Below, piece by piece: positions 40,867 through 45,471 of a stretch of DNA of 64,000 bases. The position numbers were made by a program, and so were the translations under genes. Under the pieces are notes generated by a model. It was not told the origin of the DNA and did no database searches. It saw only the letters and a list, made by a program, of their open reading frames with translations. Numbering within the stretch: the first letter of the stretch is position 1; each line of letters opens with the position of its first letter. Source of the stretch: a virus (lineage: Duplodnaviria > Caudoviricetes); the IMG/VR virus record IMGVR_UViG_3300037454_000334, positions 32,001 through 96,000 of that record; one strand, given 5' to 3'.

Positions 40867-41805
40867 CTAATAGTTTAATTCGTTAAATTCGTTGTCCTTA
40901 AAATACTCGCGGCACTTGAAGCCCTTGCGGGGTTCGTAGTCGAGAAAGTCCATCGTCTTGAACAGCCAGGCGCGGTTGGCCCAGCGGGCGATGTCGAGTT
41001 CATACTGCGAGGGCTGGCGCTGGTTCTGATAGTCGCGGTAAGGCTGCACGAATGGCAGTATGCCGAGGCGCTTCAATGTGCGCAGTCGGTGCAGATCCTG
41101 TTCGCGGGTGCTGTTGAATCCTACCAGCACGTAGCACGCTATCTTCGACGGTCGGATGTACTTGGTCATTGCCTGCAGCCGCTCTGTCAGGTCTATCTGC
41201 GGCAGGTCCCACGCGATATGGATGTAGCCCTTCATCCGAATGCTGTTCAGTGCCGCTGCCTGCTCTTCGTCCATAATGCGGATATCGACACCATGGAACT
41301 TCACGGGCAGCCGCTGTGCTTTGAGGTCTTCTATCGCCCACCGCCATTCGGGATTGGCGAAGAAGTTGTTGTCGAGCACCTCTATCCACTCGGCTCGCGG
41401 GTTCCACGCCATCGGCTCTACGGGGTGAATGGCACCCTCCTTGTCGTGAACCAGACAGAACGGACAGTGACGGATGCAGCCGCGCGAGTAGAACTGCACC
41501 GAGAAGGGATGCTGAGGATAAAGGTCGTAAGCCAGTCCGCAATAGCGGTCGACAGCCTCGGGCAGACGGCTTTTGATATCGTAGCCAGTACCCCCCCCTA
41601 AAAACTCGCTGGCGTGATATTCCAGACGGTTATAGTCTTGAGTAAACGTGAACACCTTCGAGGCATAGATGCGGTCGTAGCATCCGAACAGCGGCATGGC
41701 CCATTCAGCCGTGTCGCCCTGCTCGCGGTGCCACGATGCCAGTTTCATCAGCGCCACGTTCGGGAAGTTGTGCCCGTCAACGTCTATCAGTCCGATATTC
41801 ATCAC
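40867..41805 (-). CDS. radical SAM family protein
   Basis: SRGCIRHCPFC (CxxxCxxC); NFPNVALMKL N-terminus; internal G8 tract in frame. Confidence 0.85.
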   Translation of the reverse strand: MMNIGLIDVDGHNFPNVALMKLASWHREQGDTAEWAMPLFGCYDRIYASKVFTFTQDYNRLEYHASEFLGGGTGYDIKSRLPEAVDRYCGLAYDLYPQHPFSVQFYSRGCIRHCPFCLVHDKEGAIHPVEPMAWNPRAEWIEVLDNNFFANPEWRWAIEDLKAQRLPVKFHGVDIRIMDEEQAAALNSIRMKGYIHIAWDLPQIDLTERLQAMTKYIRPSKIACYVLVGFNSTREQDLHRLRTLKRLGILPFVQPYRDYQNQRQPSQYELDIARWANRAWLFKTMDFLDYEPRKGFKCREYFKDNEFNELNY

Positions 41806-41825
41806 TATTCACTATTCACTAATCA

Positions 41826-42943
41826 CTATTCACTAAACTTCAACTCCAGCTGGAGGAACTTCTCGGCGTACCATCGCTTGTATGACTTGCCGCTGATCCA
41901 CCATTCAAAGATGTTCTCGGCTATCTGGTGTTCCTGCTCCTCAGTCAAGCCGTCAGACGAGGAGCTGCCCGAAAACCCGAGCCACCATTGCGGGTCTGGA
42001 TGTGCGATGTACCCCCCCAGTTCCGACGGTGATGGGTCTCCAGTCGGCGCCAATACCGTACCACAGGGTTGGAATTGGTAAGACCTCTTTGAGATACCCC
42101 CCCCCCTCGTCGGATGTTGATGATGGCCTTGATCCATCCACGCTTCACATGCGGCCAGCGGTTCATCTCCTTCAGCTTCTGACGATAGCTGCTCATAGGA
42201 CAGCAGATACAGCCGATACGGGTATAGCCTTCGTCGTAGAGCGAACAGTGGGGCACGCGGCAGACGCGGTTCAGGAACTCCCACACGTCACGCTCGGTCC
42301 AGTGGATGATGGGCGAAATGAGCAGACTCTCCTTGCCGCTGATGCAGCCGACGGTGCGCTCGCCTGTGGCATTGGTGATGTTGACACCCTTGGGCGGTCG
42401 TCCCCGTCGCGGCTTGCTCAGCTTCTCCTCGCGGTACTGCTCGAAGCCTTCAAGGGTGCCGCTGAACTTACGGCTCGATATCTCCACCTCGTTGCGCTTC
42501 GCCCGTCGGGTGCTCTCCTGATGACGGATGCCTATCAGCGTCACCTTGCCCGCACCGGAATTCTCCTTATATTCGTTGCAGCACCAGCGCACCCGCTGGG
42601 TGGGTAGCAGACTTTTCTCCACTGCTATCTGGTAGATGCTCGCCTTGGGCTTGATGAGCTGCACCTCGGGGTAGTGCTGCTTCACGAATCGGATCACCTC
42701 GGGCGGGTCTACGCTCGTCAGGTTCATGTGCCCCTCGTATCGTACACCCGCCAACTGGGCAATATGCAGCAGGGCCTGAGAGTCTTTTCCTCCGCTGAAA
42801 GCAAGGTAATACCCCCCCCTACTGTCGTAAGCAAGAGCCAGACGCTCGGCTTTCTGCAGCAGACGGACGCTGTACTCCATCTTCTTCCGCAGCCCCAAAC
42901 TGGCCCGTGCCAACGCTTCGTCTAATGTCAGTTCAATATTCAT
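41826..42943 (-). pseudogene. PAPS-reductase-family protein, frameshifted at a G10 tract (probably phase-variable)
   Basis: LAFSGGKDS, RWCC, GIRHQESTRR, RIGCICCP; plausible C-terminus (AENIFEWWISGKSY) lies in another frame after G10 at 42097-42106. Confidence 0.8.
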
Positions 42944-42958
42944 TTTAATGTTTAATGT

Positions 42959-43291
42959 TTAATCTTTAATCTGCAACGGGTGATTGCTCTGCCTTGCCGA
43001 CCATTCCAGATTGGTGTAGTGGTTATTCTCCCTATCCCCGTCCTTGTGAAGCACGTAGGGCAGGTTGTCGGGGTTCGGCACGAATGCCTCGGCCACAAGT
43101 CGGTGAACCTTGAAGGTCTTGCCCTGCAGGCGAACACGCCGGTAGCCCTTGCCGTTGTAGGTGGCTATCTGATGCCAGGAAGAAGGATCGCTCTTCGGAT
43201 CGGTAGTGCTCCATACCAAGCCATCCATACCTATATAGTAATATGTTTTCCCTTTCTGATAGAAAAACAAACATTCATAACATTCTCTCAT
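42959..43291 (-). CDS. HNH endonuclease
   Basis: VHRLVAEAFVPNPDNLPYVLHKDGDRENNHYTNLEW. Confidence 0.88.
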   Translation of the reverse strand: MRECYECLFFYQKGKTYYYIGMDGLVWSTTDPKSDPSSWHQIATYNGKGYRRVRLQGKTFKVHRLVAEAFVPNPDNLPYVLHKDGDRENNHYTNLEWSARQSNHPLQIKD

Positions 43292-43303
43292 AACAATTAA
43301 TTT

Positions 43304-44080
43304 TTAAAACAACGTAGGCTGTCGCCTTATCTTGTCAATGCGCTGCTGAGCAATGGCGAAGTATTCGGGGTTGGTCTCGAAACCAATAAAGTGCCTTTTC
43401 TCCATCAATGCGGCCACGGCGGTCGTACCCGAACCGATGGTAGCGTCGAGAATTACCCCCCCCGTATTGCTGTAGGTCAGCACCAGATAGCGCAGCAGGT
43501 CAACGGGCTTCTGAGTGGGATGGGACTGATCCTCATTACAATGCACGGCCTGCTTGACGATGATGGAACGTGGATGCTTCTTATCCTTATACGTCGGATT
43601 AATGCGACCAACCTTGCCATAGCAGGAATTCTTCTCCTTGTGATTGCCGTGCCCCTGAGTATGGTTCCGTTCTCGACCATTCAGCGCCTCCATCTGAGGA
43701 TTATACGTGCCGAGTTTGCGATAGAAAACACAGATATCCTCGTGGTTACGTAAAGGCATTCTGTTCGCATTCAAAAAGCCCGTCGCCCTCACCTTATCCC
43801 AAATCAGATTGTACCGCCATATTTTTGGCTGGCTCATCATCAGTTTCGCCGTGAACATACCAGAACCAAAGAGTACAATGGGTGCATCAGGCTTGGTCAC
43901 TCTCAGGAACTGCTCCCACATCGGCTCCAGCGGGATGATGCTGTCCCACTGCCCGCCCTCGCTCTGTTCGTTCAGCACGCCGTAGGGCAGGTCGGTGATG
44001 ATAGCATCCACCATCCCGTCGGGTATGCGCTGCATCCCCACCAGGCAGTCTTCATTGTATATCTTGTCGAGTTCAATCAT
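43304..44080 (-). CDS. DNA methyltransferase (N6A/N4C, beta class)
   Basis: DLPY, HPTQKP, LDATIGSGTT; G8 tract in frame. Confidence 0.92.
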   Translation of the reverse strand: MIELDKIYNEDCLVGMQRIPDGMVDAIITDLPYGVLNEQSEGGQWDSIIPLEPMWEQFLRVTKPDAPIVLFGSGMFTAKLMMSQPKIWRYNLIWDKVRATGFLNANRMPLRNHEDICVFYRKLGTYNPQMEALNGRERNHTQGHGNHKEKNSCYGKVGRINPTYKDKKHPRSIIVKQAVHCNEDQSHPTQKPVDLLRYLVLTYSNTGGVILDATIGSGTTAVAALMEKRHFIGFETNPEYFAIAQQRIDKIRRQPTLF

Positions 44081-44445
44081 TTTTCAATCCCTAAGATGTC
44101 GTGATAAAAGTCCAGGGCCTTGCGGGTGGCGATGGATGCCTGGTGCTGTTCGTGTCGACGCTGGGCCTCAATTTGATACAGGCGATGGCGCTCACGTTTT
44201 TCAGCCTTTGCTTCGCGTCGTGCCTTCTCGTTCATATAGATGGTATTGCGCAGGTCGTTGTCGTCGATGATCTCGTTCAGCAGCTTCGTATTGTGCTTCA
44301 TGAGATAGTCCTTGATGACGTTCTGTGCCAGCCAGCTTTGATGCTCCATCAGGGCTTTAAGCAGCTGTTCGCCATCCACACGTAGAATGTGGCGATTCTG
44401 GTCGTCCATACCAACCACGTCGTTTATCTTCAAGTGTAACTCCAT
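44077..44445 (-). CDS. hypothetical protein
   Basis: 122 aa, ATGA overlap. Confidence 0.7.
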   Translation of the reverse strand: MELHLKINDVVGMDDQNRHILRVDGEQLLKALMEHQSWLAQNVIKDYLMKHNTKLLNEIIDDNDLRNTIYMNEKARREAKAEKRERHRLYQIEAQRRHEQHQASIATRKALDFYHDILGIEK

Positions 44446-44448
44446 AGT

Positions 44449-44781
44449 TTACCCCCCCATGTCGTCGGTCTTGAAGTCGCGCAGTCTCTCGCCGGTCACT
44501 CCGGCCTGTTCCTTAATCTCATTCATCAGTTCGGCAATCTTTGCGCCTCTTACAATGCGGCTCGTGGTGTCTTTATACGTCTTGGACAGAGCCTTACGCA
44601 CCTCATTGGCCTCGAATTCGTCACCGATGGTGATACAGTCGGCCAGACGGCTACGCAGTGTCGGCATCCGTTTACGTTGGTTCCAACTTGCCTTCTGACC
44701 GATGCGGTCTTTCAGCACGCCAAGAGCGGTGACTACGGTCAGCACCTGCTCGTCAGTTAATGTGATAGTTATTCCTTGCAT
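44449..44781 (-). CDS. hypothetical protein ending at a G7 tract
   Basis: Ends ATG GGG GGG TAA. Confidence 0.65.
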   Translation of the reverse strand: MQGITITLTDEQVLTVVTALGVLKDRIGQKASWNQRKRMPTLRSRLADCITIGDEFEANEVRKALSKTYKDTTSRIVRGAKIAELMNEIKEQAGVTGERLRDFKTDDMGG

Positions 44782-44811
44782 ATTTTCTCAGTCTATAAGT
44801 TGATGATGTCT

Positions 44812-45471
44812 CTAAAAATCCAGTTGCAGCTGATGGATGGTATGGCCTTGGGGTGTGCGGGTGATGTTCAGGCACTCACGGTCGAAACGCTCGCAGCCGT
44901 CAGCGTAGTAGTCGGGGTCAATCTCGCATCCCACGTAGTCGTAGCCCAGCTTGTAAGCAGCGATGCGCGATGACTGGCTTCCCATCATCGGGTCGAAGAT
45001 TACCCCCCCCGCAGGGGCGAACTGCTGCAACAGGAAGGCATACAGTTCAACGGGTTTCTGCGTGGGGTGTATCTTGTCACCGGTGCGGTTGTCGAAGCGG
45101 AACATCTTCGACGGACTGCTGAACGACGTCCAGGCATATTCGGCCTGTGAGAAGTTCGGCCAGGGCTGCATCTTATCCCAACAGACGAAGCAGCGCGTCG
45201 GAGGCAGCAGGAAGTAGTTGCCACCCCAGATGACCTGGTTCTCACTGACACGACGCAGCTCGTCGAAGAACGCCTGTGCGGGGGCCGTATCCCAACGGTC
45301 TATCTTGCCGTTGTTGAACACCCTGCCCCGCAGCTTGCCAGCACCACCCGTGGCACCCCCTGCGTCACGAATGCCGTAGGGCGGGTCGGCGATGGCAAGC
45401 GCAAAGGCGTTGTCGGGCAACGAGCGCATCAGCTCCATGCAGTCCATGTTATATGTCTCGCTCCTTGCCAT
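44812..45471 (-). CDS. DNA methyltransferase (N6A/N4C)
   Basis: DPPY, IWGGNYF, HPTQKP, FDPMMGSQSS; G8 tract in frame. Confidence 0.92.
   Translation of the reverse strand: MARSETYNMDCMELMRSLPDNAFALAIADPPYGIRDAGGATGGAGKLRGRVFNNGKIDRWDTAPAQAFFDELRRVSENQVIWGGNYFLLPPTRCFVCWDKMQPWPNFSQAEYAWTSFSSPSKMFRFDNRTGDKIHPTQKPVELYAFLLQQFAPAGGVIFDPMMGSQSSRIAAYKLGYDYVGCEIDPDYYADGCERFDRECLNITRTPQGHTIHQLQLDF

Follow-up and report, generated by a model that had tools for sequence, protein, structure and literature searches.

The window analyzed here, a 64-kb stretch comprising bases 32001–96000 of one 106,914-bp phage contig (completeness estimate 65%), contains seven long homopolymeric tracts within a cluster of genes for candidate DNA-modifying enzymes. 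On the plus strand the tracts are runs of seven to ten Cs, and TA precedes each of them; the minus strand, which is the coding one, thus reads G(n)TA at every tract. A first-pass annotation had placed them in a radical SAM gene, a PAPS-reductase-like gene (three tracts), two methyltransferase genes, and one small open reading frame (ORF); its coordinates and lengths were exact on re-count and its gene assignments were right. It had also stated that the 64 kb hold no other G or C run of seven or more, which is true even at a threshold of six. The tracts, followed by the genes of the cluster, are as follows (window coordinates).

41591–41598, minus strand: G8 tract in the radical SAM gene, codons ∼70–72 (TTA GGG GGG GGT ACT); in frame (ON)
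42012–42018, minus strand: G7 tract, third in the PAPS-reductase-like gene (CTG GGG GGG TAC), in the conserved C-terminal frame
42097–42106, minus strand: G10 tract, second in the PAPS-reductase-like gene; the conserved C-terminus is not in phase with it
42812–42819, minus strand: G8 tract, first in the PAPS-reductase-like gene (site 1), shortly before the SGGKDS PP-loop; in frame (ON)
43456–43463, minus strand: G8 tract in methyltransferase 1 (ACG GGG GGG GTA ATT CTC GAC, encoding T-G-G-V-I-L-D), directly before motif I; ON
44452–44458, minus strand: G7 tract in a 110-amino acid (aa) ORF, adjoining its TAA stop codon on the 5′ side, with the ATG of the following gene 7 nt downstream
45003–45010, minus strand: G8 tract in methyltransferase 2 (GCG GGG GGG GTA ATC TTC GAC, encoding A-G-G-V-I-F-D), directly before motif I; ON
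40867–41805, minus strand: candidate radical SAM domain gene, 312 aa; phrog_9298 over its full length (E 3e-115); CX3CX2C motif
41826–42943, minus strand: PAPS-reductase-like PP-loop gene; assembled ORF 41945–42943, 332 aa; PF01507 (E 8e-21) and phrog_424
42959–43291, minus strand: HNH endonuclease gene (homing type) without a tract, between the PAPS-like gene and methyltransferase 1; PF13392 and phrog_59
43304–44080, minus strand: N6/N4 (beta-class) DNA methyltransferase 1, 258 aa; PF01555 positions 1–220 of 221 (E 1e-30); motif IV variant DLPY
44077–44445, minus strand: small ORF, 122 aa, without a tract; no family matches; 100% identical in relatives L088 and L119
44449–44781, minus strand: small ORF, 110 aa, with a tract at its stop codon; no family matches
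44812–45471, minus strand: N6/N4 DNA methyltransferase 2, 219 aa; PF01555 and phrog_67; motif IV DPPY

A beta-clamp gene lies upstream of the tract cluster. The PAPS-like protein, which has an FSGGKDS PP-loop in its sequence, scores 75 bits against PF01507 (cut-off 22.5) and misses all NCBIfam equivalog cut-offs. The radical SAM protein carries its cluster-binding motif as CIRHCPFC and is matched over its full length by phrog_9298 ("radical SAM domain protein"), yet it has no Pfam and no PDB sequence match. As assembled, the radical SAM gene, PAPS-like site 1, and methyltransferases 1 and 2 are ON, while the PAPS-like C-terminus and a third methyltransferase, encoded outside the window, are OFF.

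The number of tracts is by itself unremarkable, as a first-order Markov model predicts 3.9±2.0 runs of at least seven per 64 kb. What is striking is the collapse of the run-length spectrum and its reappearance at 7–10, together with the clustering and the TA flank. C-runs of lengths 3 to 6 number 533, 73, 14, and 0 in the window and are followed by the seven of 7–10; G-runs of the same lengths number 447, 125, 12, and 0. All seven tracts fall within 3.4 kb, a spacing that seven random sites attained in 0 of 400,000 trials. Over the whole genome, TA lies 3′ of G3–G5 runs in 3–8% of cases, as compared to 10 of 10 long runs. These ten include three further tracts outside the window, again all G(n)TA:

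genome position 6913: G8-TAG tract in a 177-aa ORF without assigned function
genome position 21781: G8-TAA tract in a 69-aa ORF
genome position 23323: G9-TAA tract in a third PF01555 methyltransferase

The description of the tracts as confined to the DNA-modification cluster thus holds for the window but not for the whole genome, although 7 of the 10 sit in ∼4% of it.

A search with the PAPS-like protein gave three IMG/VR loci and 35 metagenome loci at no more than 95% identity, whereas megablast and blastn against GenBank phages returned nothing useful; the sequences compared here are metagenome or draft assemblies. The first-pass annotation had proposed on/off phase variation by slippage, against which invariant tract lengths in orthologues would speak. 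We found poly-G tracts at homologous sites in the relatives, and their lengths differ. In pairwise megablast comparisons, L118 and L122 had 0 mismatches over 1868 bp and a single gap, G8 versus G7, at the 42812-site tract; L118 and L121 had 0 mismatches over 1853 bp and differed as G8 versus G9; and L121 and L122 had 0 mismatches and two gaps, both in poly-G. Because L121 and L122 differ only there, two tracts ∼700 bp apart appear to switch independently on one background, and the different states of different tracts in L118, L121, and L122 uphold the earlier claim of independent switching. When 17 alignments with identities of 97% or higher were pooled (31.9 kb with 190 mismatches), half of the G/C runs of seven or more (14 of 28) differed in length.

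These length changes have consequences for the reading frame. In tblastn alignments, frame breaks fell exactly at the tracts of the radical SAM gene, the PAPS-like gene (two sites), and methyltransferase 2. In the segments downstream of out-of-frame tracts, the ratio of nonsynonymous to synonymous substitution rates (dN/dS) was 0.08–0.2 at dS 0.6–1.8, and because of these low values the out-of-frame alleles are best regarded as recent OFF states rather than pseudogenes. Tracts at homologous sites persist across lineages of 65–95% amino acid identity, and the genes that hold them are under purifying selection. Comparison of consensus sequences shows, then, that the tracts mutate far faster than their surroundings, that the length changes break the frame, and that selection otherwise maintains intact genes; with polymorphism in otherwise identical contigs, frame breaks, and purifying selection all in evidence, phase variation by tract slippage is well supported.

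L088, which comes from a 117-kb contig and is the closest of the relatives found, is also rich in tracts, with 16 in 21 kb. Five of these (L088 14800–17142) lie close upstream of, or within the 5′ end of, a large gene for a C5 cytosine methyltransferase, and six (L088 17100–18470) lie in a block of small unassigned ORFs on both strands, genes that are absent at that place from the genome studied here. Another relative, IMG/VR 2885358051_000002 (90,283 bp), corresponds to Contig204 (NZ_BEWV01000204.1) in the Prevotella sp. MGM1 assembly. Its 16 tracts of at least seven are concentrated in C5 methyltransferase fragments, in the PAPS-like gene, and in one N6/N4 methyltransferase; of the 17 exact G8 runs in this 3.0-Mb assembly, five are on Contig204, a density ∼13-fold that of the rest.

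The genome encodes exactly three PF01555 genes, all above the curated cut-off, and no PF00145 gene was found in its 106,914 bp. Although the three methyltransferases are only 30–39% identical to one another, all have the tract at one structural position, directly before motif I, which lies 3′ of the tract in each; motif IV (DLPY, DPPY, and SPPY in methyltransferases 1, 2, and 3) is N-terminal to motif I. Among relatives, the methyltransferase 1 tract is G7 or G8, while that of methyltransferase 2 is G9 in L088, L118, and L120 and G7 in L119, and the methyltransferase 2 frame breaks at residue ∼156 in L088 and L117–L120 (tblastn). Methyltransferase 3 (genome 22544–23463; L127 ∼2045–2960) is split into two frames exactly at its G9, where G8 would restore ...P-T-G-G-V-I-L-D-P-F-M-G-S-G; it also has an in-frame TAG (W-*-K-P-N, genome ∼22988).

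The cluster varies in gene content as well. Because methyltransferases 1 and 3 are identical over their first 21 residues, the methyltransferase genes appear to be mosaic. Methyltransferase 1 (43304–44080) is absent from L088, which has another small gene at the junction (L088 9042–9617), and L118 and L119, from one assembly, differ in the set of genes that separates methyltransferase 2 from the HNH gene; on account of these differences the cluster is considered structurally variable too. The G7 tract at 44452 is specific to this genome, the junction being different in L088 and L119, and at tract lengths G6, G7, G8, and G9 the ORF that it ends would encode 116, 110, 141, and 117 aa, respectively.

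In the PAPS-like gene, site 1 was G7 in 13, G8 in 12, and G9 in one of 26 related contigs, with tblastn frame breaks at residues 43–47 in 15 contigs; breaks near residue 281 occurred in six contigs, and the third tract (42012) is G7 or G8 in relatives. At the second site, the G10 keeps the assembled 332-aa ORF open, but the 89 codons of the conserved C-terminus are found in a different frame (41826–42095); in relatives this frame is free of stops, with a dN/dS of 0.1–0.46. Reading on past the G10 in the frame of the assembled ORF gives a dN/dS of 0.9–3.1 and, in relatives, stop codons. In addition, L090 has an intact 372-aa PAPS-like ORF with G8 at this site, and the alternative-frame peptide of the present genome matches the C-terminus of that ORF. 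For these reasons we conclude that the G10 does not bring the conserved C-terminus into phase, as G8 or G11 would. Lengths of 7, 8, 9, and 10 were observed at the site, L088 and L089 (G7) being in the same phase as G10 and L095 and L105 (G9) in the third phase. Distant PAPS-like homologues from human-gut contigs (L109, L111, and L112; 48–53% identity) have a G8–G9 tract at residue ∼65, and this different position suggests that tracts may have been gained repeatedly and independently in the PAPS-like family. The +1 frameshift site of Escherichia coli prfB (AGGGGG UAU CUU UGA) has a Shine-Dalgarno-like stimulator and a spacer; the G10 flank (GGGGG-TAT-CT, window 42097–42130) resembles these, which may be a coincidence.

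The radical SAM gene indicates how a tract can arise. Its 80 orthologous loci in IMG/VR (59–79% identity, 1.28 Mb, 41.5% GC) contain only eight G/C runs of at least seven, and all 80 encode K/R-G-G-T-G-Y-D (AAA GGT GGT ACN) at the tract site, where the present genome encodes L-G-G-G-T. Because the orthologues are uniformly K/R-G-G-T, the tract must have been built by replacement of the conserved Lys with Gly and by synonymous GGT to GGG changes; because they have GGT ACN there, the TA at this tract is ancestral. The tracts are thus lineage-specific, having been made by selection or expansion. The frame breaks at residue 71 in L088, L092, and L117, all of which have G7 (tblastn). The radical SAM gene was linked to the PAPS-like gene in 7 of the 80 related loci, and we therefore rejected the two as an obligate pair.

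We consider it quite probable that the G7–G10 runs are hypermutable contingency tracts that switch these genes on and off. Slipped-strand mispairing during phage DNA replication would add or remove single Gs, and each such change would shift the reading frame of the gene bearing the tract. The three methyltransferases, the PAPS-like enzyme, and the radical SAM enzyme would each toggle between full-length and truncated forms, independently and reversibly, and the C-terminal tracts of the PAPS-like gene would switch between alternative C-termini. One burst would then contain phages with differing sets of active modification enzymes. Mixed enzyme sets could be expected to yield mixed DNA-modification patterns, and by analogy with agt of phage T2 such mixtures may hedge between hosts in which restriction calls for the mark and hosts with modification-dependent nucleases that attack it.

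Several points weigh against this interpretation. The data are metagenome consensus contigs, in which the length of a single tract may be miscalled. Methyltransferase 3, given its in-frame TAG, may be simply decaying. The radical SAM and PAPS-like proteins, whose DNA-modifying role is conjectural, do not form a conserved pair. Slippage of polymerase or ribosome along the G-runs could blur the ON and OFF states. Finally, slippage leaves the 3′ TA context unaccounted for.

To characterize this context, a flank profile was made from 65 de-duplicated tract sites of the lineage. The 3′ side has T (0.60) or C (0.29) at +1, A (0.82) at +2, A/T at +3 (0.79) and +4 (0.89), and T (0.52) at +5, giving a consensus of G(n)YAWWT; this bias is missing from G4 runs and is slight on the 5′ side. 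The TA context had been called invariant, which is correct for this genome (10/10); in relatives the G(n)TA bias is real, but TA itself is not invariant. Some "AT" flanks look like TA flanks overwritten by G, as in L101 (G7-TATTTCTC) versus L001 (G8-ATTTCTC). A protein-level cause was rejected, as TA occupies every codon phase: position 1 (TAT, TAC, TAA), position 2 (GTA), and position 3 (GGT Axx). Nor was early termination in OFF frames supported, the median distance to a stop in the other frames being 27 codons as compared to 15 for G4 controls, and the Bacteroidetes −7 promoter box (TAnnTTTG) does not fit positions +5 to +8 after the tract. An open-frame heuristic for sense-strand bias (64 sites, 41 versus 23) was discarded as unreliable because of spurious antisense ORFs; we assign tracts to the sense strand only if homology establishes which strand is coding.

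The flank is not peculiar to phages. TAWW follows 6 of the 12 non-phage G8 runs of the MGM1 assembly, and in per-genome tables summed over 101 genomes of the genus Prevotella, G8TAWW occurs 275 times as compared to 75 for the mirrored WWATG8, 30 for G8ATWW, and 68 for WWTAG8. No such enrichment was found in 120 other Bacteroidota genomes (63 versus 59 mirrored). Those Prevotella chromosomal sites that were sampled are in unrelated contexts, often just after start codons. The TA flank thus appears to be a regularity of the Prevotella clade, common to host and phage. A phage-specific enzyme signal was rejected because Prevotella chromosomes share the bias; the enzyme-assisted slippage signal suggested by the first-pass annotation is thus unlikely as the work of a phage enzyme, and a context tied to the host clade is possible. 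The chromosomes have a mean of ∼2.7 G8TAWW sites per genome (G004–G104; e.g., L143–L162), many of them just after the starts of long ORFs, and two paralogues in L158 are out of frame at the G8. From such sequences, poly-G phase variation may be common in Prevotella.

An idea that goes beyond contingency switching, and that we regard as rather doubtful, is that G(n)YAWWT is a cis signal of the Prevotella clade, in bacteria and phages alike, that sets the slippage rate or is read at the RNA level (for example, through stop-stimulated ribosomal or polymerase slippage), the phages having adopted the switching grammar of their host. If that were true, contingency tracts of the clade would have a defined "address" beyond the homopolymer, and the phage epigenome would be combinatorial and phase-variable.

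It seems improbable that the tracts are instead a neutral by-product of a mutational bias in Prevotella replication or repair that makes G(n)TA runs, with no adaptive switching. The genus-wide enrichment of G8TAWW, absent from other Bacteroidota, and the unrelated contexts of the sampled chromosomal sites are what such a bias would produce. It does not predict, however, the ∼13-fold excess of G8 density on the phage contig over the rest of the MGM1 assembly, the concentration of phage tracts on methyltransferase and adjacent genes, or the retention of tracts at homologous sites in diverged lineages whose genes remain under purifying selection.

We likewise give little credence to the proposal that the tracts are recoding sites on which polymerase or ribosome slips, such that several DNA lengths yield product and DNA variation is largely tolerated; a −1 P-site slip on GGG with a flanking UAA or UAG in the A site would be one form of it. 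The G-run is on the sense strand wherever homology identifies the gene, the flank motif is independent of codon phase, as expected for a nucleic acid signal, and a stop immediately follows the run in another frame at 34% of sites, as compared to 16% of G4 controls. On the other hand, the flanks TAT and TAC, taken together, occur roughly as often as TAA and TAG, off-frame stops are overall no closer than in controls, and the DNA-level polymorphism is real with or without recoding.

That the tracts reflect homopolymer errors in sequencing or assembly, with constitutively intact genes and an artifactual G10, is very improbable: although homopolymers are the classic site of indel errors, the comparison sequences are all metagenome or draft assemblies, and G10 is not the in-phase length, homologous sites carry tracts in samples of separate origin as well as in the assembly of an isolate, exact agreement is seen between some independent assemblies (L088/L120 over 10 kb with 0 gaps, and likewise L103/L104), length differences reach 2–3 nt, and errors cannot account for the lineage restriction, the Lys replacement, or the concentration in methyltransferase genes.

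Contingency switching of this kind has precedents. In bacterial phasevarions, simple-sequence repeats in Type III mod or Type I hsd genes switch DNA methyltransferases ON and OFF. The tracts described here resemble them in repeat-mediated methyltransferase switching and in having several independent loci per genome, a likeness in mechanism only: phasevarions belong to chromosomal restriction-modification systems and control host regulons, whereas the phage enzymes are apparently orphans (no search for restriction partners was made), and the likely target of the phage methyltransferases is the phage's own DNA. Sorensen and colleagues are said to have described, in 2021, hypermutable poly-G tracts in receptor-binding genes of Campylobacter phages (Fletchervirus) that create phenotypic diversity within a population. 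Those, too, are poly-G tracts in phage genes but are reported in receptor-binding proteins; Campylobacter phage NCTC12673 has only two runs of at least seven Gs, neither followed by TA, which is too few for a flank control. In Bordetella phage BPP-1 (42.5 kb), the sole G/C run of at least seven is a G8 in the adenine methyltransferase gene bpm (L163 29922–29929). As in our genome, this tract is on the sense strand of a PF01555-type methyltransferase gene directly before motif I (P-G-G-V-V-L-D-P-F), but it is a single tract with a GTG (TG) flank.

The nearest functional parallel is agt of phage T2, encoding an alpha-glucosyltransferase, in which an A-run contingency locus has been shown experimentally to toggle sensitivity to TgvAB versus McrA/BC (Gomez, Barrick and Waters; bioRxiv 10.1101/2025.10.21.683753). 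In both cases the homopolymer lies within a phage DNA-modification gene, and in T2 it gives frequent, reversible frameshifts that trade one kind of restriction for another. T2 differs in having A-runs, one glucosyltransferase, and experimental evidence; here there are G-runs, three methyltransferases plus two further enzymes, ten tracts, and comparative evidence. The switching principle is therefore already known, and it is the density of tracts, centered on methyltransferases and neighboring enzymes, that is unusual. In the library searched, no paper was found on poly-G phase variation in Prevotella or on poly-G switches in phage methyltransferases.

The phage, itself uncultured, belongs to a Prevotella-infecting lineage. 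If the switching is real, its one genome would encode up to 2^5 or even more combinations of DNA-modifying activities, released as a mixed population, and would thereby have a built-in hedge against the varied restriction and modification-dependent defenses of rumen and gut Prevotella. Annotators would be cautioned against calling such genes pseudogenes or "fixing" their frameshifts. Because the assembly of Prevotella sp. MGM1, a cultured isolate, includes a relative on a 90-kb contig, the idea may be testable, and the TA flank bias common to Prevotella hosts and phages could reveal determinants of slippage in the clade. Real switching would also mean that phage contingency loci, known from model coliphages and Campylobacter phages, occur in abundant, uncultured phages of Bacteroidota as well.

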